64,000 nucleotides of DNA from positions 77,659 to 141,658 of the forward strand of contig JAVJRC010000004.1 of the NCBI GenBank assembly GCA_040218615.1, read 5' to 3'. The translations under genes were made by a program, and so were the position numbers. The number at the start of each line of letters is the position of its first letter. The first letter of the stretch is position 1. The notes beneath the pieces are model-generated. The model ran no database searches, was not told the origin of the DNA, and saw only the letters and a program-made list of their open reading frames with translations. The DNA comes from Gammaproteobacteria bacterium. GTDB lineage: Bacteria > Pseudomonadota > Gammaproteobacteria > Pseudomonadales > Pseudohongiellaceae. Below, piece after piece: positions 4,966-44,546 of this stretch.

Positions 4966-5295
4966 CTTTATACCTTTTGGGTTAGGCCTCCACACACCCC
5001 ATGGTTCAACCCAATCCCGATGAAAAAATTGGGCACCCAGAACACACGTGTCGGTGTATGTGCGACGTTAAATAGTTAATTTACCCAGTATCACCCGGAA
5101 TGGGTGCCTGAGCGGGGCGCTTTATACCATAATCTGCTGATTTTCGAAACAATTTCGCTTACTTAGGGTTTGTAAATTAAGCATTCCAGGTTGGATCTTC
5201 GAAGTTGGTCCACTAAGGTGACTATGAAGGGCTTTCCGGGCACGTTTTGGACTCTGGAAGTCCTGATTCTAGAACCGAGGATGGTCGGATTCGGC

Positions 5296-14377: not shown

Positions 14378-14460
14378 CAGGTGTTTGCCGGGTCTGGGTG
14401 GCAGCAAAAAAGAATGTTGAAGTTTAACTCGATATGACGGCAGATTTTCATGAAACCCAA

Positions 14461-14493
14461 TAAAAATCCCCCTTGATAGATATCAAGGGGGAT
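14461..14493 (-). terminator. Intrinsic terminator downstream of the polycationic protein gene
   Basis: On the minus strand, a 13 bp perfect stem (AUCCCCCUUGAUA / UAUCAAGGGGGAU) is followed by UUUUUAUU. A second 14 bp hairpin lies at 14518-14548. Confidence 0.7.
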
Positions 14494-14607
14494 TACTTGG
14501 GTGCGAGGGGTAGACCTCCACCTTCCGCAGCTTTGCTGCGGAAGGTGGATAAATGGCTTGGTCTGTTTCGCTTGCTAGTTTTCCTGGCCAATCAAGACCA
14601 GTTCTAG

Positions 14608-15948
14608 CTAGCGCTTCTTGCGACGTGCCGTTTTGCGTTTGGCCGTTTTGCGCTTGGCGGTTTTCCTTTTCGCCTTCTTGCGCGCTGGCTTACGCTTGGC
14701 TGTCTTCTTCTTGGCCTTCTTTTTAGCCTTCTTCTTCGCAGCTTTCTTTTTGCGAGCCGGCTTACGCTTGACTACTTTTTTCTTCGCCTTCTTTTTGCGT
14801 GCTGGCTTGCGCTTGGCGGTTTTCTTCTTCGCCTTGCGCTTCGCTGCTTTCTTCTTGCGAGCTGGCTTACGCTTGGCTGCCTTGCGCTTGGCTACTTTCT
14901 TCTTAGCCTTCTTCTTGGCTGCCTTCTTCTTGCGTGCCGGCTTGCGCTTGGCGGTTTTCTTCTTCGCCTTACGCTTGGCTACTTTCTTCTTGGCCTTCTT
15001 CTTGGTTGCTTTGCGCTTGGCTGTCTTCTTCTTAGCCTTCTTTTTAGTTGGCTTGCGCTTGGCAACTTTACGCTTCGCAGCTTTCTTGGCTGCTGCTCTG
15101 CGCTTCACAGACTTCCGCTTGGCAGTCTTCTTTTTGGCCTTCTTTTTGGCTTTTTTCTTGGCCTTCTTGCGACCAGGAGCCTTTTTCTTAGCCTTCTTGC
15201 GACCAGGCGCTTTCTTCTTCGCCTTACGCTTGGCTACTTTTTTCTTAGCCTTCTTTTTAGCCTTTTTCTTGGCCTTTTTCTTTCGGGCCGGCTTGCGCTT
15301 GGCGGTTTTTTTCTTCGCCTTACGCTTGGCTACTTTCTTTTTGGCTTTCTTCTTGGCCTTCTTCTTGGTGGCCTTACGCTTGGCAGTTTTCTTCTTCGCC
15401 TTACGCTTGGCTACCTTCTTTTTGGCCTTTTTCTTGGTTGCTTTGCGCTTGGCAGTCTTCTTCTTGGCCTTCTTCTTAGCCTTTTTCTTGACTGTCTTGC
15501 GCTTGGCAACTTTACGCTTCGCAGCTTTCTTCGCGGCCGCTCTGCGCTTCACTTTCTTCTTCGCTTTCTTTTTGGCTTTGCTGACCTTCTTCTTGGCTTT
15601 CTTTTTGGCCTTGCTAGCCTTCTTTTTCACTTTCTTTTTGGCCTTGCTGACCTTTTTCTTGGCCTTGCGAACCTTCTTCTTCACCTTTTTCTTGGCTTTG
15701 CCCGCTTTTTTCTTGGCCTTTTTCTTCGCCTTACTTACCTTCTTTTTGGCTTTTTTCTTGGCCTTACTGACCTTTTTCTTTGCGGCTTTCTTTTTGGCAG
15801 TGGCTTTACGCTTTACTGCCGCCTTTTTCTTGGCAACTTTCTTCTTCGCAGTCGTTGCTTTACGCTTCGCTGCTACCTTCTTCTTGGCAACCTTCTTCTT
15901 AGCTGCTGCCTTTTTCTTCGCAACTTTCTTTTTCGCTTTCTTAGCCAT
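14608..15948 (-). CDS. Extreme polycationic Lys/Ala/Arg repeat protein (histone-H1/AlgP-like composition)
   Basis: 446 aa ORF with ATG preceded by GAGG. The translation uses only M, A, K, R, V, T, S, G and P. A terminator lies downstream. The equal-length plus-strand ORF is a mirror artefact. Confidence 0.7.
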   Translation of the reverse strand: MAKKAKKKVAKKKAAAKKKVAKKKVAAKRKATTAKKKVAKKKAAVKRKATAKKKAAKKKVSKAKKKAKKKVSKAKKKAKKKAGKAKKKVKKKVRKAKKKVSKAKKKVKKKASKAKKKAKKKVSKAKKKAKKKVKRRAAAKKAAKRKVAKRKTVKKKAKKKAKKKTAKRKATKKKAKKKVAKRKAKKKTAKRKATKKKAKKKAKKKVAKRKAKKKTAKRKPARKKKAKKKAKKKAKKKVAKRKAKKKAPGRKKAKKKAPGRKKAKKKAKKKAKKKTAKRKSVKRRAAAKKAAKRKVAKRKPTKKKAKKKTAKRKATKKKAKKKVAKRKAKKKTAKRKPARKKKAAKKKAKKKVAKRKAAKRKPARKKKAAKRKAKKKTAKRKPARKKKAKKKVVKRKPARKKKAAKKKAKKKAKKKTAKRKPARKKAKRKTAKRKTAKRKTARRKKR

Positions 15949-16107
15949 TTTTGACCTCGCTACCTAATGTCAAGTTACATTACAGAGTACTGCTAAATTT
16001 GCTCCCAACGGCGTTTGTCAGTGCTGCCTGACTTCCCTTTCCCAGCTGACGCCCTCCGCTTGGAGACACCCTTCTTTACAATCGCCTGCTTCCTGGCAAA
16101 CGATTTC

Positions 16108-16845
16108 CTAACCGGTTTTCCTGCCCGCCCGCTTCTTACCCGCAGGGTTCTTACGCTTGGCTCGTTTTGTAGACGCCTTTTTGACTGGTTTCTTGCCACC
16201 CTTTTTGCCAGCAGCTTTCTTGCCAGCTTTCTTTGCAGCCTTTTTCGCAGCCTTTTCTACCTTGCGTTGCGCAGCTCTCCGAGCTGCCGCTTTCGCCTTT
16301 GTGGCTACTTTCCTGGCGTCTTCTTTCTCTTTCTTCTTTGCAGCGTTTTTTGCTGCAATTCTTGCCTTTAATGCGTCTTTTCGGGCTTGTCGGGCTGCTT
16401 TAGCTGCGTCTGCCTTGGCACGTTTCCGTTTCCACCTGGCAGTAAACGCGTCTATAGCACGCTGCAAGTCTTCTTCTGCTCTGGCTGCTTCAGCCTCTCT
16501 TCTTGCTTTTTCCTTTTCTGCGAGTTCTATTGCCCTCGCTTTAGCTTTGGCAGTTCGAATTCTTGCCTTTATCGCCGCCACCTTGGTGGCCGCTTTTAAT
16601 TTTGCGTTTTTAGCACTCTGCGCTGCTCTTTTACTGGCAGCTGTTTTCTTTTTCGACGCAGCCTTCTTCGCAGCTGTCGCCTTCTTCCCGGCTGCAGTGA
16701 GTAATTTCTCCGCAGCCTCGGCCTTGTCTTCCAAACTGGCAACAGCAGCCCTGGCTTTTAATAGCGCCTTGCTGCTCGTTTTGTTACCACTTCTACGGCC
16801 CTTCTTCTTTTTAGTAGCAGCAGGTTTCTTTTTAGCTTTAACCAT
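16108..16845 (-). CDS. Basic Ala/Lys-rich coiled-coil protein with polylysine termini
   Basis: 245 aa, MVKAKKKPAATKKKKG... Central charged A/K/E/R heptad-like region, then C-terminal KKAAKKAGKKAAGKKGGKK. No obvious RBS. Confidence 0.6.
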   Translation of the reverse strand: MVKAKKKPAATKKKKGRRSGNKTSSKALLKARAAVASLEDKAEAAEKLLTAAGKKATAAKKAASKKKTAASKRAAQSAKNAKLKAATKVAAIKARIRTAKAKARAIELAEKEKARREAEAARAEEDLQRAIDAFTARWKRKRAKADAAKAARQARKDALKARIAAKNAAKKKEKEDARKVATKAKAAARRAAQRKVEKAAKKAAKKAGKKAAGKKGGKKPVKKASTKRAKRKNPAGKKRAGRKTG

Positions 16846-17304
16846 AAAATTGTCTGGTTATTTCAAAGTCGATGTTGCATGACATGATTTTAACGCAACA
16901 TCAACCCACTGCTCGCGGGCAACATATCACAATTTTTATTTAGCAAACAACAAACTAACGCTTAAAACACACTAAATAAAAAAAACTTTTGTTTGGTTCA
17001 CGCATGATGCCCACAGAATCATGGTATCAATCACTTATTTCGCTAGCTGAAGAGAAAACTTTAAGAAAACTGTGCGGGTATTGTTGTAATTACAATAAAA
17101 CTGCACAAACTTTGTACAAAGTTGTGATGTTTCAGCACCTGAAAATGCTATTTAAAAGACTTAACAACCGTAGACAAAGAAAATGCACATGCGATTCGCG
17201 TAAATAAGTTAGCAATTTATCTGCCAACTTTACTGTTTTAATGTGTTGCAGCTAACAAATCGTTTAAAAAACTCACGCGCGACTAAAATTTGACGTCCAA
17301 AACG

Positions 17305-34923: not shown

Positions 34924-35000
34924 TGGTGTCCCCGGGCCGATTTGAACGGCCGACCTAGCGCTTAGGAGGCGCTTGCTCTATCCAGCTGAGCTACGGGGAC
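34924..35000 (-). tRNA. tRNA-Arg (anticodon CCU)
   Basis: The minus strand reads GTCCCCGTAGCTCAGCTGGATAGAGCAAGCGCCTCCTAAGCGCTAGGTCGGCCGTTCAAATCGGCCCGGGGACACCA. Cloverleaf with 7 bp acceptor stem, CT-CCT-AA anticodon loop, TTCAAAT T-loop and encoded CCA. Confidence 0.93.
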
Positions 35001-37874: not shown

Positions 37875-38148
37875 TGCTGTTTCCTGTTCCTGCTCCCGCT
37901 TTCGCGCCTATGTTCTCATGCCTCGTTCCCGGGCGCACTTCAGAGGCTGCCAGGGACCCACAATTCCGAGTCTCGTCCCTCAGTAGACCCCAATACGGCA
38001 GATTTCCTTCAACGGCAATTTTCCGTGCCGGTTCCCAGACCTGCCCTACTCAACCAAGGCTACGGTTTAAGGTTATACTGGAGCAGGCAGGTACTGGCGG
38101 TTGATCCAACAACCCGCAGGATGCCAGTGGCGCTATTCCTTACTCGAT

Positions 38149-39681
38149 ATGACTGAAAACACCGAAACACTACTCGCACAGCTACAGCAAGCGAAGCAAC
38201 AGCTCGAGGCTGGAGATTCCGCTGGAGCCACCTCTCTCTACACCGAAGTCGCCCAGCAGGCAGGAGATGACCTGCTGGTCAATCTGCACCTGGCACAGCT
38301 TTGTACCGCCATGGGTAACGCCAGCGCCGCTGAATCGCATCTGCAAACAATCATTGCGCAGGAAACAGATGACCTGGAACTGCTCGTTACAGCTGCAAAA
38401 TGCCTGGGTGAAATTAACCTGCACGACAAGGGCATAAGCCTGGCAAGAAGAGCTGTTGCCATTGATCCGGAAAATCCCGACGCACTTTCAGCGCTGGGTA
38501 GCCTGCTGGTGGAAGCCGGAAAGACTGAAGAAGCCCAGGATCATCTTTTGCACATGATAGAAAAGCGCAAGAACCTGCGACTGGCATATACCAATCTGGC
38601 CCGCCTGAGAAAATTCACCTCCGAAGACAGCACCCTGATCGATCAGGCGGAAGCTGTCATTGCTGATGGCCTGCCTGCCCGGGAGCAACTGGCAGTCAAC
38701 TTTGCCCTGGGAAAGATCTACGATGATTGCCGTGAGTTCCACAAGGCATTTCCCCATTTCCAGCAAGCCAACGAACTGCAAAAAGAAGCCCATGACCACA
38801 ACAACGATTTAAACTGGTTTAAACAGATCAACACTGTTTTTACCGAAGGCACGATCGGCCGCCTTAGCGAAGGTGGCCACCAGTCCAGCCAACCGGTCTT
38901 TATCGTCGGCATGCCCCGCTCGGGCACCACACTTATGGAGCGGATAATCGCCAGTCATTCCCAGGGGGCAGGCGCTGGGGAATTGTTGGCAATGCCACGA
39001 ATTGCCCATCAAATCATGCGGGAGAATGAGGTTAGGCCAGCAGAGCGAGCACAACGGAGAATGACGCCTGATCTCATGGCAGGTTACAGCAATTACTATT
39101 TGCAAACCCTGCGACTCGGGCAGCCACCGGCACAACGTATCGTCGACAAGCTGCCAGGCAATTACCAGAACCTGGGTTTGATTCACGCACTGTTTCCCAA
39201 TGCCTCAATTGTTCATGCAGTCCGTCATCCACTGGATACCTGCCTGTCTTGCTATTTTCAGGCCTTCGCCGAAGTCCGTTGGTCCAACGACCTGAAAACC
39301 ATTGCTGACACCTATAAGCTCTACCGGGAATATATGAAGTATTGGCAAAAAGTCCTGCCTCGCGGCAAGATTCTGGAGGTTCAGTATGAGGCGCTGGTCG
39401 AAAACCCGACCGAAGAAGGGCAGCGCATGTTGAACCATTGCGGCTTGAGCTGGGAAGCAGAAAGCCTGGAATATCACCAACAACAGGCAGTGGTGAGAAC
39501 CGTAAGTCATGCCCAGGTCCGACAACCCATTTACCAAACTTCCAGAAAGCGCTGGATGAATTATGCCAAGCATATCCAGCCGCTGGTCGATGAACTCACT
39601 GAGTATCTGAAAGAAGACCAGGCAATGCTGGAAGAGAATGGCCTCAAGCTAAAAAAGAAGAAGCGATTCGGTCTTTTCTGA
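38149..39681 (+). CDS. TPR-repeat sulfotransferase family protein
   Basis: N-terminal half is TPR-like helical repeats. C-terminal half has FIVGMPRSGTTL (PAPS 5'-phosphosulfate-binding loop) and VRHPLDTCLSCY. ATG at 38149. Confidence 0.75.
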   Translation: MTENTETLLAQLQQAKQQLEAGDSAGATSLYTEVAQQAGDDLLVNLHLAQLCTAMGNASAAESHLQTIIAQETDDLELLVTAAKCLGEINLHDKGISLARRAVAIDPENPDALSALGSLLVEAGKTEEAQDHLLHMIEKRKNLRLAYTNLARLRKFTSEDSTLIDQAEAVIADGLPAREQLAVNFALGKIYDDCREFHKAFPHFQQANELQKEAHDHNNDLNWFKQINTVFTEGTIGRLSEGGHQSSQPVFIVGMPRSGTTLMERIIASHSQGAGAGELLAMPRIAHQIMRENEVRPAERAQRRMTPDLMAGYSNYYLQTLRLGQPPAQRIVDKLPGNYQNLGLIHALFPNASIVHAVRHPLDTCLSCYFQAFAEVRWSNDLKTIADTYKLYREYMKYWQKVLPRGKILEVQYEALVENPTEEGQRMLNHCGLSWEAESLEYHQQQAVVRTVSHAQVRQPIYQTSRKRWMNYAKHIQPLVDELTEYLKEDQAMLEENGLKLKKKKRFGLF

Positions 39682-39738: not shown

Positions 39739-41622
39739 ATGAACTGGTCCTATAACAAGTTGTCTCTGGTGCTATTCGCGGGACTGGCGATACTGACTGC
39801 GGTCATTTACTGGCCCGGACTACACGGCGGTTTCATACTCGATGATTTTCCCAATCTGGCACTGCTTTCCATGCTGCCCGCGGATGCCAATGTTGCGCAA
39901 ATACTGAACCTGTCCACCAATGGCATCGCCAGCGAGCTGGGCAGGCCATTGTCCCTGCTAAGCTTTCTCGTGCAAGCCTCATCCTGGCCTGATGATCCGT
40001 TCAGCTTCAAGCTGGTCAACCTGTTTATACACTTGCTCAATGCCGGGCTGTTGCTGTTGTTTTTTACGCTTCTCTTCCGGGCAAACCCCAGCCTGAAGAT
40101 CAAGCCCCTCTACTTGTTGGCACTGCTTTCCTTTTGGCTGTTACACCCGATCAATGTTTCCAGCGTGCTCTATGTCGTGCAGCGAATGAACCTGCTTGCT
40201 TCCCTGTTTGTGCTGTCAGGCCTGGTCAGTTATTTATGGTGCCGGATTCGATTCCTGGAATCAGGTGGGCGTGGCTATTTTGCTGCGGCTGTCATTTCTC
40301 CGTCGATCATGTTCGTGCTCGGAGTATTGAGCAAGGAGAATGCTGCCCTGCTCTATCTGTATCTGGCGGTGATGGAAGTCACTTTGCTGGATGAAAGCCG
40401 AACAACTACCAAAGCTGGAAAGCTCAGCCAGTTGGCTGTGTTCCTCCCGCTCTTGCTGGGCATTTTGGCTTTTGTATTTTATGTGCCAGGGGTGCTGGAG
40501 GCGTATCAGCAGAAGCCATTCACATTGATCGAGCGCAGCCTGTCCCAGTTCGCCGTGCTACTAAGCTATTTGTCGAATATTCTGTTTCCGTTTCCTGACC
40601 GGTTCGGTTTGTTCCACGATGACTTCCCGGTTTACGGGTCAGTGGCTAACCTTGCTGTCGTTTTTTCGGTCGCTATTGTCCTGTTCTTGTTAGTCGCGGC
40701 CATCCGAAAGCGCAAATCACAGCCTGTGCTGAGTTTCGCGGTGTTGTGGTTTTTTGCTGGCCACGCGCTGGAATCTACCATTCTGCCGTTGGAACTGTAT
40801 TTTGAGCATCGCAATTACTTGCCAGCGGTCGGCGTGCTATTCGCCTTGATCTGGCTGCTGCAAAAGGGAGAGACCCTTTTCACCGGCACTGAGAGAATCG
40901 TCACCCGCAGTTTTACTCTGATCTTTCTGTGCTGGTTTGCAACTATCACCGTGCTGGAATCATTTCTGTGGGGGGACTCGATGACACAGGCTTACGTGGA
41001 GGTGGAAAGGCACCCCGAATCTTACCGTGCCAGCACGCACCTGGTGCAAACCGTCACCAGCAGTGGTGATCCCCAATCAGGTTTTCAACTGCACAGGCAA
41101 CTGATGGGCTCCGACAGCAATCGTGTTGGTGATTATCTTCGCTGGCTGGAGTTTGGCTGCATTTTGCAGAACCTCGAGTTGCCTGCCCAAAATGAACTGC
41201 AAGCAGTTGCCGCCAATGCCCCTATGGAATTCACCGCCATAGCACAACTCAATCGGCTGCTGCCTGCAGTGCTGAATGGTTCCTGCCCCGGCACGCTGCT
41301 ACCCGGACTAATTGTCACGATCGAGGCTTTGCTGCAGAACGAAAATTTTGCTTTCTCAAGAGCAGATCTGCTGTATGCCCTCGCCACGGTCTATGACGCA
41401 CAGGGAAATTTGAGCCGTGCAACGGAACTGGGGCAGCAGTCGTTCTCTCTCAGGCCCGGAATCAGCACCGGATTAGTGCTACTGAATTGGCTAATCGAAT
41501 CGGATAACCTGGAAGCAGCCAGGGTCTTATTGCAGCAGTTTGAATCGGAGTTTGCCCTGGAGATTGCCAGCAGAGCAGGCTTGCGCAATCAGCTTGCAGC
41601 TATTGCCGAGCGGCTCGATTGA
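39739..41622 (+). CDS. Polytopic membrane protein with C-terminal TPR domain (GT-C / PMT-TMTC-like)
   Basis: 627 aa with at least 10 predicted TM helices. ILDDFPN follows TM1, similar to the GT-C first-loop acidic motif. The C-terminal ~200 aa are helical repeats. Confidence 0.6.
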   Translation: MNWSYNKLSLVLFAGLAILTAVIYWPGLHGGFILDDFPNLALLSMLPADANVAQILNLSTNGIASELGRPLSLLSFLVQASSWPDDPFSFKLVNLFIHLLNAGLLLLFFTLLFRANPSLKIKPLYLLALLSFWLLHPINVSSVLYVVQRMNLLASLFVLSGLVSYLWCRIRFLESGGRGYFAAAVISPSIMFVLGVLSKENAALLYLYLAVMEVTLLDESRTTTKAGKLSQLAVFLPLLLGILAFVFYVPGVLEAYQQKPFTLIERSLSQFAVLLSYLSNILFPFPDRFGLFHDDFPVYGSVANLAVVFSVAIVLFLLVAAIRKRKSQPVLSFAVLWFFAGHALESTILPLELYFEHRNYLPAVGVLFALIWLLQKGETLFTGTERIVTRSFTLIFLCWFATITVLESFLWGDSMTQAYVEVERHPESYRASTHLVQTVTSSGDPQSGFQLHRQLMGSDSNRVGDYLRWLEFGCILQNLELPAQNELQAVAANAPMEFTAIAQLNRLLPAVLNGSCPGTLLPGLIVTIEALLQNENFAFSRADLLYALATVYDAQGNLSRATELGQQSFSLRPGISTGLVLLNWLIESDNLEAARVLLQQFESEFALEIASRAGLRNQLAAIAERLD

Positions 41623-41756
41623 GCCGATGAGCCTGTCCTGAAATTCCAGCAACACCGCCCTCGTCACAGAAATTACCCTGAAATCAGGGGACATTCCCAG
41701 TGTTCTGGCTTAACTTATTGCCCGGACACAAGACAGCCTGGATAACTGCGTTACCT

Positions 41757-44546
41757 ATGGATCAGCAAAAAAGTTTCATCAGCTACTCAACAGCCGCATT
41801 TTTCCTGTCCGGATGTTCGGCTCTCATCTTCGAAACAGTTTGGTTCCGGGCTGCCAGTGTCGCGCTTGGCACGACTGTCTGGAGTGCCGCAGTGGTGCTC
41901 ATGGCTTTCATGACCGGATTGGGGCTCGGCAATGCAGTCGTCGCTTTCCAGGGGCACAAAATACACAGCCCCGTTCGATTCTATGTCCTGATCGAAATCC
42001 TTATTGGTATCAGCGGTCTGGCCGCGGTGTTTCTCCTGCCAGGAGTCTCTGGCTTTGCGGCTTCCATGCTGGCAGGCCTGACCGAAAACGGCCTGTTGCT
42101 TAATGCCGCGAGGTTTTTCATCGCCTTCCTTGTCCTTTTGGTTCCAGCGACCGCCATGGGAGCCACCTTACCGGTTCTGCACAAAGCCCTGCACCGCGTT
42201 GAACAATCCTTTTCATCTTCAATCGCCAGACTTTATGGCTGGAATACTCTGGGCGCTGTAGTCGGCACACTGGCGGCTGAATTTTTCCTGATTTATTGGT
42301 TGGGCCTGAACGCTGTAGGGGTAGTCGCCTGCCTGCTGAACCTGCTGGCAGCACTGCTGCTGTTTAATTTGTTTGGTGGTGAGTTTCCAAGCTTTGACAG
42401 CAATGGCAACGAACTAGGTAAAAAGTCTTTACCACAGGCATCATGGCTGCTGATACCACCGGCAGTGATCGGTATGTCCTTGCTGGCACTGGAGATCATC
42501 TGGTTCCGTTATCTGCTGCTTACCCAGAACGAGTCAAGCACGCTATTCGCCACTATGTTGGCCATTGTCCTGGTGGGCATCGCCATGGGCGGATTGCTGG
42601 TGTCTCGAATCCGCACCTTTGCTGACAGGCTGTCGGCTAGCCTGGCCATCATTCCCGTTGTCGCCGCAGCGAGCACGGTGGCTGGCCTTGTTGCCTTTCA
42701 GTTTCTGTATTCAAACTATCTTCCTCAACTGAGGGAAAGCTTTGGATTCTTTACGCTGGCGGCGATGGTGTTGATGCTGCCTACCAGCATCGCTTCCGGC
42801 ATTCTCTTTCCACTGTATGGCGAGCGTTTCTACCAACATTACGGAGTAGACACCCAGGCCTCGGGCATGTTGACCGTGTCCAATACCCTGGGTGCAGCGC
42901 TGGGTTCCTCCCTGGCAACGCTGGTGCTGCTGCCATTACTTGGTATTGAACGCTCCCTATTGTTAATCGTCACGCTCTATTTGCTGGTAGCACTGCTGTC
43001 CATGACGCCAGCTATCACCACCGGGCTTGTGACTAAGTTCAAGGCAACGACAGTGATCGCATCAATACTGGTGCTGGCACTGTTTCCATTCGGATCCTTG
43101 CAACGCTCCTACCAAGTGTTTGACAGCTTTCTGCCTGACATGGAATTGGTAGCAGTGAATGAAAGCCTCTATTCGACTCTGCAATATTACGAAATTCGGC
43201 GGCTCGGTCAGATTGAGTCCTATCGGCTGGTGACCAATGGGTATTCCATGTCCGGCACCGATTTTTCGGGCGAGAGATACATGAAGCTTTTCGCCTATCT
43301 CCCGGCAATTCTGCACGGCAACCTCCAGGACATACTGCTGATCAGCTATGGAGTGGGGAATACAGCGGAAGCCGCAACAAACTTGTCCACCTTGCAATCA
43401 CTCGACATTGTGGATGTCTCAGAAGAGATCGTTGAGATGAGCCGACCGTTTCACCAAGTGATTGGTTACGATCCGCTGGATGACCCCAGGACAGAAGTGC
43501 ACATTGATGACGGTCGGTTTTTCCTCCAAACCACAGACAGAAAATATGACCTGATCACTGGCGAGCCTCCCCCACCCAAGGCACCGATGATTGTCAACCT
43601 GTACTCAAAAGAATTCTTCGAACTGACCTACGAGCATTTGAATCCGGGTGGCATGATCAGTTACTGGTTGCCCATCCACGATCTGCACGACAGTGACTCA
43701 ATTGCCATCATCAAGGCGTTCTGCGAGGTTTACCGGGATTGCAGCCTGTGGAATGGCTACAATATGGATTGGATTTTATTAGGTAGCCGAGATGGCCTGC
43801 CTGCCATGGATGAACAGGTGCTGCAGGAAAATTGGGCGCGCTATGCAAACCAGGAACTGAGTGACATCGGCATTGAAACTCGAGGATTGCTCGGTGCCAC
43901 ATTCATGGCCGATGCGGCAGAACTCAATCGCCTGAGCCAGCGCTTTCTTCCCGTTACCGACAACTACCCGCAAAGGATCTCGCCCTCTACACAGGGTATG
44001 CTGGACCCGTCACCGCTGTACGCGCATTTACTCAATATAGACACCAGAAAACAGCGATTTCGTGAGAGCGATTACATCAATTTTCTGCTGCCGAACAGTT
44101 TTCGGCAAGAAGTGAACCAGGCCTTCGAATATGAACGCATTGCCAGTCTGGTAGCCCTAAACCCTCACATGGATTATACGCTTCCCTATTACTGGGATGG
44201 CTTGAGTCAGCTAATGGAGGATTCCCAATTGAGAGTTCTGCCGCTGCTGCTGTTGGGGAGTAATCCCAGAGAGCAATCGATTCGAGCGGGAATGCGGGAT
44301 GGAACAGATCTGAATACTCGCGCTGCCTTGATTAAACATCTCCTGGTAGAGCGCGACTATGCAGCGCTGGAGCTTGAAGCCGAAAGATATTTGCGCATTG
44401 AAACCGATCAAAATACGCGACTTTTTATCAGCCAGATCCAGATGCTGGCAAAAGCTTTGCAGGGCACGCTGTCTGATTCGGATGTACAAAACTCTTTAGC
44501 AGCCAGCGATGCTCGATTCGTTGACTGGATCAAAGCCAAGTACTAG
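41757..44546 (+). CDS. Fused polytopic membrane domain / spermidine-synthase-like protein
   Basis: N-terminal ~470 aa is multi-TM. The central domain has ILLISYGVGNTAEA and YDLITGEPPPP, a class I SAM/dcSAM-binding spermidine-synthase pattern. The C-terminus is helical. The start could be ATG 41757 or GTG 41700. Confidence 0.7.
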   Translation: MDQQKSFISYSTAAFFLSGCSALIFETVWFRAASVALGTTVWSAAVVLMAFMTGLGLGNAVVAFQGHKIHSPVRFYVLIEILIGISGLAAVFLLPGVSGFAASMLAGLTENGLLLNAARFFIAFLVLLVPATAMGATLPVLHKALHRVEQSFSSSIARLYGWNTLGAVVGTLAAEFFLIYWLGLNAVGVVACLLNLLAALLLFNLFGGEFPSFDSNGNELGKKSLPQASWLLIPPAVIGMSLLALEIIWFRYLLLTQNESSTLFATMLAIVLVGIAMGGLLVSRIRTFADRLSASLAIIPVVAAASTVAGLVAFQFLYSNYLPQLRESFGFFTLAAMVLMLPTSIASGILFPLYGERFYQHYGVDTQASGMLTVSNTLGAALGSSLATLVLLPLLGIERSLLLIVTLYLLVALLSMTPAITTGLVTKFKATTVIASILVLALFPFGSLQRSYQVFDSFLPDMELVAVNESLYSTLQYYEIRRLGQIESYRLVTNGYSMSGTDFSGERYMKLFAYLPAILHGNLQDILLISYGVGNTAEAATNLSTLQSLDIVDVSEEIVEMSRPFHQVIGYDPLDDPRTEVHIDDGRFFLQTTDRKYDLITGEPPPPKAPMIVNLYSKEFFELTYEHLNPGGMISYWLPIHDLHDSDSIAIIKAFCEVYRDCSLWNGYNMDWILLGSRDGLPAMDEQVLQENWARYANQELSDIGIETRGLLGATFMADAAELNRLSQRFLPVTDNYPQRISPSTQGMLDPSPLYAHLLNIDTRKQRFRESDYINFLLPNSFRQEVNQAFEYERIASLVALNPHMDYTLPYYWDGLSQLMEDSQLRVLPLLLLGSNPREQSIRAGMRDGTDLNTRAALIKHLLVERDYAALELEAERYLRIETDQNTRLFISQIQMLAKALQGTLSDSDVQNSLAASDARFVDWIKAKY

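Follow-up and report, generated by a model that had tools for sequence, protein, structure and literature searches.

The 64,000-nucleotide stretch of gammaproteobacterial chromosome considered here (positions 77,659 to 141,658 of contig JAVJRC010000004.1; "the window" below) carries, between adk and tsaB, two adjacent genes that we call X and Y. Gene Y (14608..15948, minus strand) encodes a polycation of 446 amino acids (aa), and gene X (16108..16845, minus strand), directly upstream, a K/A-rich protein of 245 aa with a helical-hairpin head and short basic tails. From the comparisons of related loci reported below we conclude that Y is the detached tail module of a two-part bacterial histone-H1-like protein, which in this marine gammaproteobacterial group has been split from its helical head, X being the partner of Y and formerly its N-terminal domain. 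Y is thus part of a two-part architecture and not a domain-less orphan, since X encodes the head and the two are fused in relatives.

Y is a single open reading frame (ORF) in the ORF listing, with an ATG start. Its product has nine residue types (241 Lys, 102 Ala, 41 Arg, 24 Val, 19 Thr, 9 Pro, 6 Ser, 3 Gly and 1 Met) and is without Asp, Glu, Phe, Trp, Tyr, Leu, Ile, His, Cys, Asn or Gln. Lys makes up 54.0% of residues and Lys plus Arg 63%, with a net charge of +282 and a mass of about 50.6 kDa. The texture is very regular, as 81 of the 97 runs of basic residues are triplets, with spacers of one or two small residues, and the units include AKKK (35 copies), TAKRK (10), VAKRK (7) and PARKK (6); there are no KPAA units. 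AlphaFold2 (AF2) gives isolated long helices with no tertiary fold (predicted template-modelling score 0.20). Y thus has what is expected at the sequence level of bacterial H1-like polyanion binders, a class defined by function and not by homology, being long, K/A-rich and of low complexity, with no acidic residues and no predicted tertiary fold.

A GAGG lies 6 nucleotides (nt) 5' of the ATG, and in an alignment of the seven split loci (A4) the leader (15949..15994, minus strand, with the Shine-Dalgarno GAGG at 15955..15958) is nearly unchanged over the 45 nt or so 5' of the start, GGTAGCGAGGTC.AAAATG being invariant. On the 3' side there is a terminator-like hairpin with a 13-pair stem followed by TTTTATT (14459..14494, minus strand), and direct reading of the sequence shows an extra perfect 13-bp hairpin, lacking a T-run, between the Y stop codon and the terminator (14518..14548, minus strand). 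Rfam gave sub-threshold matches to terminator hairpins over the locus and nothing else. The preliminary description of this DNA, made from the letters and an ORF list, had reported the 446-residue Lys-dominated product of nine residue types, its repeat texture, the GAGG ribosome-binding site, the ATG and the terminator, and all of these were borne out; it gave no strand, which is minus.

With regard to X, AF2 predicts a confident helical hairpin of helices 23-66 and 69-210, with a mean predicted local distance difference test score of 83.9, rising above 90 over the core. The core, about 150 residues long, hardly varies among orthologues (alignments A1 and A3) and contains E, D, L, I, F and W. 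The preliminary description had stated that there is no globular or coiled-coil domain at all, and this is right for the Y polypeptide; it does not hold for the context, as a head is encoded by the adjacent gene and is joined to the tail in fused relatives. The X start has no obvious Shine-Dalgarno sequence, the conserved sequence there being ATAACCAGACAAnnTTATG. A 68-aa basic ORF in another frame (15993..16199, minus strand) overlaps the 3' end of X and runs into the X-Y spacer; its sole Pfam match is a weak sub-threshold one to DUF5569 (E = 0.023), and the ORF is probably spurious.

Relatives were reached through TsaB matches with 84%, 50%, 44% and 42% identity to TsaB of the window, and fused and split loci were gathered by a metagenome scan with an X alignment and by further TsaB-guided look-ups. 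Their source in every case is a marine or estuarine metagenome. The gene order adk - X - Y - tsaB - uppP is common to the genomes with the four TsaB identities just given, in which the Y orthologues have 420, 380, 340 and 377 aa (overall range 340-446 aa). None of the related genomes examined lacks the Y ORF, and four public contigs, each of 50 kb to 1 Mb, encode exactly the 446-aa product. A search for homologues had been recommended in the preliminary description: they do exist, and are now known from 14 loci, fused or split. These 14 loci (alignments A1, A2 and A3) share a signature consisting of a head core ..IRTAKAKARA..DLxKAxAAFxxxWKRKRxKA..ARKxALKARIAA.. adjoining or fused to a tail that starts MAKK and carries VKRR[A/S]AAKKAAKRKV, by which X and Y can be treated as a new family of the adk-tsaB slot in marine gammaproteobacteria.

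In four of these loci, L012 (on a 1.9-Mb contig), L013, L016 (TARA) and L019, X and Y are joined in one ORF. Its product is 459-542 aa long in the three complete cases (L012:4273-5901, L013:105-1484 and L019:3208-4812); L016 ends at a contig edge. The protein reads '..RKxTGKPMAKKK..' at the fused junction, and the DNA there retains the Y start sequence ATGGCTAAGAAA. In the more distant L017, a Pseudohongiellaceae metagenome-assembled genome (MAG) by its NCBI name, and L018, the slot holds one protein of 369-392 aa with an X-type head and a milder K/A/P tail (44-45% basic). In a neighbour-joining tree of the heads the split forms all fall into a single clade, itself nested within the fused forms, which suggests that a single gene fission separated X from Y and also created a dedicated ribosome-binding site. 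The fused tail of L012 is already 63% basic, so that the extreme composition of the tail is older than the split.

The basic fraction is 0.626-0.638 in all split Y proteins, at lengths from 340 to 446 aa, and a charge held in this way while length varies points to linear charge density as the property under selection, as would be expected of a protein that binds polyanions electrostatically. The spacer between X and Y in the split forms is 57-185 nt and contains several in-frame stops, with a frame offset that differs among genomes. As the spacer is just 57 nt in L006, it is likely that X and Y are co-transcribed. Stop-codon read-through or frameshifting to join X to Y was also considered, and is ruled out by the multiple stops and the varying offsets.

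Two further observations were made on the fused forms. In L012, L013, L016 and L019 the internal Met that matches the Y start has ACGGGGA 8-9 nt upstream, and internal initiation of a separate tail protein might already occur in the fused lineages. The C-terminal tip of L019 is atypical and acidic (..GEKKEGGKKEELTPDTSLP).

The evidence that Y is a gene includes a comparison with the closest relative, L003. The two Y genes differ at 8, 9 and 62 first, second and third codon positions; of the codon changes 55 are synonymous and 13 non-synonymous, and every indel keeps the frame and is of repeat size. The third-position excess is also found for more distant pairs, for which the repeat alignments are less certain. 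The first codons of Y, ATGGCTAAGAAA, are almost invariant in seven loci, from genomes in which TsaB is 42-84% identical. On this evidence Y truly codes for protein and is subject to purifying selection in the Lys frame.

It could be argued instead that Y is non-functional, being either a decaying remnant left when a nonsense mutation or insertion cut the tail off X, or an artefact of AAG/AAA repeats with the true product in another frame or on the other strand. Y has no database family or annotation, its repeat number differs among relatives, and two antisense frames are open across the whole region in all orthologues, all of which would fit such a view. Indeed, as three frames (the Lys frame and the two antisense) are open in every orthologue, the integrity of the Y ORF is by itself uninformative. 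However the openness of the antisense frames is accounted for by the composition of Y, which uses neither Leu codons nor the Ser codon TCA. The antisense ORF at 14618..15967 (plus strand, 449 codons) was assessed as a possible real gene and rejected, as its protein would change at 64 of the 68 codons that differ from L003, whereas in the Lys frame the strong third-position bias shows that the protein is preserved. A remnant would also not be expected to keep its Shine-Dalgarno sequence and start, as Y does in all seven split loci, nor to be as long as or longer than the tails of the fused forms (340-446 aa in split Y and 171-337 aa in fused tails). The preliminary description had named frame disruption in close relatives, and a product on another frame or strand, as findings that would speak against Y; the ORF is open in all relatives, with only in-frame indels relative to L003, and the antisense changes taken with the third-position bias dispose of the second.

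Two details of the Y sequence bear on the same question. The first is a 15-residue motif, VKRR[A/S]AAKKAAKRKV, present twice in each of the seven orthologues checked and also in the fused L012. In the window the copies, both VKRRAAAKKAAKRKV, are at aa 133-147 (15508..15552, minus strand) and aa 281-295 (15064..15108, minus strand). Copies of the motif differ at synonymous DNA sites only, with DNA identities of 80-100% within genomes and 81% between them, so that the constraint on Y is not just compositional. The second is the avoidance of poly(A). There are some 80 KKK triplets per Y, and shuffling AAA and AAG over the Lys positions predicts 2-8 runs of eight or more A residues, but there are none in five orthologues (P <= 0.006 in four of the five). 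Long poly(A) tracts are reportedly a cause of slippage of ribosomes and polymerases, as Koutmou et al. are said to have found in 2015, and their avoidance in Y fits a need for faithful expression. Invariance with synonymous variation only, and avoidance of poly(A), speak against a decaying or artefactual ORF, and we regard a non-functional Y as extremely unlikely.

Taking Y, then, as a real tail module, we turn to its resemblance to known proteins. The X-Y pair is like AlgP and PhaF in architecture, while by sequence, membership of those families or of Hc1/Hc2 is not detectable. The preliminary description had likened Y to H1 tails, Hc2 and AlgP, and the likeness stands as one of composition and architecture, with no homology found by Pfam, NCBIfam or hhalign. 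With hmmscan, Y matched no Pfam-A family at E <= 0.1, HC2 (PF07382) included, and no NCBIfam family was matched by X or Y. Sixteen X-head sequences gave nothing but scattered single spurious matches in Pfam at E <= 1, and the Pfam families for Hc1, the linker histone H1 globular domain and the phasin domain were matched by neither X nor Y. A PDB profile search with the X head gave no match, and Foldseek with the X model found generic helical hairpins, none at E <= 0.001.

AlgP has a helical head and a Lys-rich disordered tail with a net charge of +55; it is on polyphosphate (polyP) granules, and the tail is needed for granule spacing (PMC9239181). The head is predicted as an antiparallel coiled coil and the tail is a long run of Lys/Ala repeats, as in X plus Y and in the fused relatives, and repeat number varies between strains of the one and between relatives of the other. 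In contrast the Y tail is made of (A/V/T)KKK and AKRK units and is 63% basic with a charge of +282, where AlgP has tandem KPAA (KPVA, KTAAA) units and is about 25% basic. The genomic location also differs, X-Y being in the adk-tsaB slot, and head and tail are separate genes in the window, forming a single polypeptide only in L012, L013, L016, L017, L018 and L019. In hhalign the profile of 16 X heads (A3), set against an approximate AlgP sequence, gave a probability of 0.4% (E = 0.16), an indication and not a decisive result.

PhaF likewise combines a helical head with a disordered, Lys-rich, nucleic-acid-binding tail, which is believed to anchor a cellular body to the nucleoid and for which RNA binding has recently been demonstrated (PMC11894788, PMC12818456). 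X and Y differ in having no phasin-domain match in Pfam, no pha genes nearby and another repeat chemistry. In the case of Hc2 (HctB) of Chlamydia trachomatis the likeness is to Y itself, both consisting almost wholly of Lys/Ala repeats and having no folded domain besides. Hc2 varies in size with repeat number, from 165 to 237 aa (PMC2848022). However Y is about twice as long, has no PF07382 match at E <= 0.1, is paired with and derived from a helical-head gene, and belongs to a free-living marine gammaproteobacterium without a known developmental cycle. The tails of eukaryotic linker histone H1 are K/A/P-rich and disordered with a polyanion-binding composition, the fused L017 and L018 being closest to them, but X and Y have no winged-helix globular domain and a much higher basic density, with no sign of common ancestry.

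Proteins of this type are easily missed. An exhaustive HMMER search with X found eight weak and fragmentary relatives among 1.84 billion representative proteins, with no link to a known family, and the number is low in part because such proteins seem to be missing from clustered collections. Thus the exact X and Y proteins of the window, L003, L006 and L007, and Y of L008, are absent from a clustered collection of 15 billion sequences in which the neighbouring Adk proteins of related loci are present. In a word-seeded search with Y the limit of 8000 candidates was taken up by low-complexity proteins, and among the matches listed were only unrelated enzymes with K-rich tails; with X there was no match among low-complexity candidates. 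A TsaB scan of genome contigs gave an irrelevant match in Oscillospiraceae as its sole result. Short-read (Logan) contigs of close relatives also break at Y, L005 starting within its last 99 codons and L004 starting just beside it, 345 nt before tsaB, which indicates that short-read assemblies fail at the Y repeats. In addition trypsin proteomics would destroy the Y product. Absence from clustered collections, the swamping of searches by low-complexity matches, broken assemblies and loss to trypsin would together lead to systematic under-counting of X/Y-type proteins.

The 230 nt upstream of X (about 16846..17075, minus strand) are nearly unchanged base for base between genomes with TsaB just 42-50% identical (A5), and include an extended -10-like element, TGTGATATGTT, and a T-rich tract. 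Upstream DNA is available for 12 loci (L001, L003, L006, L007, L008, L011, L012, L014, L016, L017, L018 and L019). The extended -10-like element, which we call P2 (16921..16931, minus strand, 74 nt before the X start), has the form TGTGnTATGTT in all 12, at 67-76 nt 5' of the start codon or, in L019, 209 nt. All 12 also have a sigma-28 (FliA)-like motif of the form TAAAGTTT-N12-GCGAAA(T/C)A, with a spacer fixed in length and variable in sequence, 170-322 nt before the start codon of X or of the fused gene; in the window this is P1, TAAAGTTT-N12-GCGAAATA (17036..17063, minus strand). The FliA consensus is TAAAGTTT-N11-GCCGATAA (PMC7286023), and the motif agrees with it at 8 of 8 positions in the -35 part and has the CGA core of the -10 part at the exact spacing. 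A hairpin 3' of the motif has four pairs and weak covariation. Further out is P0, the sigma-54-like motif TGGCAGATAAATTGCT (17211..17226, minus strand). The form TGGCA-N6-TTGC(T/C), with correct -24/-12 spacing, is found in 8 of the 12 loci at 242-404 nt upstream of X; the strict pattern has six matches in the 330 kb of collected loci, all of them upstream of X, and a relaxed pattern adds two. A regulatory region with such motifs would imply condition-dependent expression. Chlamydial hctB, the gene for Hc2, is transcribed from a sigma-28 promoter and is one of just two sigma-28 targets in Chlamydia (PMC12282069), a suggestive parallel to the sigma-28-like motif upstream of X-Y.

We propose the following as the best explanation of the locus. 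A two-part H1-like protein, with a helical-hairpin head and a Lys-rich tail, has been split into the adjacent cistrons X and Y, which are probably co-transcribed from the conserved region with its sigma-28-like, extended -10 and sigma-54-like motifs. Y would be translated as a stand-alone, intrinsically disordered polycation and would bind polyanions electrostatically through about 80 basic triplets, each set off from the next by one or two small residues, probably becoming helical on charge neutralisation. Chromosomal DNA is the most likely ligand, with polyP or RNA possible. Y may act in concert with X, the hairpin of which would serve for oligomerisation or bridging in the way put forward for the AlgP and PhaF heads, and the invariant 15-mer is a candidate site for a specific contact, for example with X. 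In AlgP and PhaF the Lys-rich C-terminal domains bind DNA, polyP granules or RNA (PMC9239181, PMC11894788, PMC12818456), and the polyanion binding put forward in the preliminary description is a reasonable reading of the composition. As a whole, including binding of DNA or the nucleoid by Y together with X, we consider this explanation probable, though well short of certain.

Several points weigh against it. The polyanion-binding function is argued from composition and architecture, as no sequence homology to characterised H1-like proteins was detected, and so is the candidate ligand. The promoters are assigned by motif matching, and in the sigma-28-like case the -10 part agrees with the consensus at just 4 of 8 positions. 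The head tree is a quick neighbour-joining tree of about 190 columns with no bootstrap. In the distant codon comparisons the protein alignments are ambiguous in the repeats, the L001-L003 pair alone being unambiguous.

The ligand could be polyP, with X and Y together an analogue of AlgP that scaffolds or tethers polyP granules, Y coating or nucleating the condensates and X linking them to the nucleoid or spacing them. AlgP is a precedent (PMC9239181), and the charge density of Y is far higher. A further pointer is that the X-Y pair always follows adk, and that metagenomic adenylate kinases from other bacteria have C-terminal tails of 130-300 aa, (V/A/T)AKKKAKKK, very like Y; fusions of (V/A)KKK tails to Adk made up 13 of the 32 matches listed in the word-seeded search with Y. 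These Adk proteins are 41-50% identical to that of the window, with one at 35% (P0009-P0012, P0014, P0016, P0020, P0022-P0024, P0028; L009 and L010). The fused genes of two loci, L009 and L010, adjoin genes for an H+-pyrophosphatase and a member of the phosphofructokinase (PFK) family (PF00365), with an inorganic pyrophosphatase in one locus and PhoU/PHO4 in the other. Pseudomonads make polyP under nitrogen starvation (PMC11894788), and the sigma-54-like motif would fit such control.

However there are difficulties with this. The 64-kb window has no ppk, ppx or other polyP gene, and no homology to AlgP was detected. The adk gene has its own terminator and is thus not co-transcribed with X-Y. 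The repeats of the Adk tails are near-identical to those of Y ((V/A/T)AKKKAKKK ... ending RR or KKR) and some of the fusions have weak PF07382 matches, but the tails are attached to enzymes and have neither the VKRRAAAKKAAKRKV motif nor an X head, so that the likeness is compositional and most likely due to convergence of low-complexity sequence. Other proteins with similar Lys tails are malate dehydrogenase, BlaI-type regulators, DksA, fumarate hydratase and SWIB proteins. Because such tails are on unrelated enzymes, and because of the adk terminator, the hint of phosphate biology is a weak one. A literature search for Adk with lysine-rich extensions found none. We think a polyP-granule role for the pair rather unlikely.

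Another suggestion is that Y works on RNA, as an RNA chaperone, translation modulator or ribosome-associated factor, in the manner of the H1-like disordered Lys-rich region of PhaF, which binds RNA and activates translation in P. aeruginosa (PMC12818456). There are translation or RNA genes nearby (tsaB, rlmD, an rsmJ-like gene, era, rnc and lepA), but this is generic housekeeping DNA with no operon linkage. Y has no recognisable RNA-binding fold or specific motif, and with its charge of +282 it would bind polyanions of every kind, without specificity. We see an RNA or ribosome role as very unlikely, and retain DNA or nucleoid binding by Y with X as the preferred explanation.

With regard to the neighbourhood, the position between adk and tsaB given in the preliminary description was found both in the window and in relatives. 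Its suggestion of a lineage-specific insertion was too strong, as a homologue, either fused or split, occupies the slot in all related genomes sampled, the Pseudohongiellaceae MAG among them, and the surroundings are ordinary chromosomal housekeeping DNA with no sign of mobile DNA. The window includes glnD, dapD, dapE, uppP, tsaB, adk, mazG, rlmD, recO, era, rnc and lepA, and also genes for a DegP/MucD-type protease, rseA, rpoE and nadB; no mobile-element, polyP (ppk, ppx), polyhydroxyalkanoate or flagellar genes were found in its 64 kb. There is a t44 small RNA (Rfam RF00127, 69 bits) at 4981..5082 (minus strand) and a tRNA at 34927..35000 (minus strand). Elsewhere in the window, at 41700..44546 (plus strand), is a gene for a 948-aa protein with a central spermine/spermidine synthase as its sole domain. 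It adjoins a 627-aa ORF with no Pfam match (39739..41622, plus strand), and a sulfotransferase-tetratricopeptide-repeat protein (38101..39681) is in the same cluster. It is curious to find a polyamine-related enzyme in the same genome as a giant polycation.

One can go further and imagine X/Y as a two-component chromatin or condensate system, in which the tail was freed so that the dosage of a +282 polycation could be tuned independently, and which, driven by flagellar-type sigma factors (from sigma-28-like and, in most lineages, sigma-54-like promoters), would compact the nucleoid or organise polyP specifically when free-living marine gammaproteobacteria are motile, not growing or dispersing. 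We put this forward as speculation and think it decidedly unlikely. If true, X/Y would be the equivalent, in free-living bacteria, of the condensation by Hc2 that sigma-28 drives in the elementary bodies of Chlamydia, and the recurrent fusions of such tails to Adk would point to poly-lysine tails as address labels for polyanion-rich compartments.

The Lys-rich H1-like proteins are the least understood of bacterial chromatin and condensate proteins, and few have been studied, among them AlgP, PhaF and Hc1/Hc2. In this locus such a protein has been dissected naturally into a gene for the head and one for the tail, and sister lineages have either the fused or the split form. It thus makes it possible to test what the tail does alone, what the head contributes, and how selection acts on charge density, which is fixed at 63% basic, and on length, which varies.

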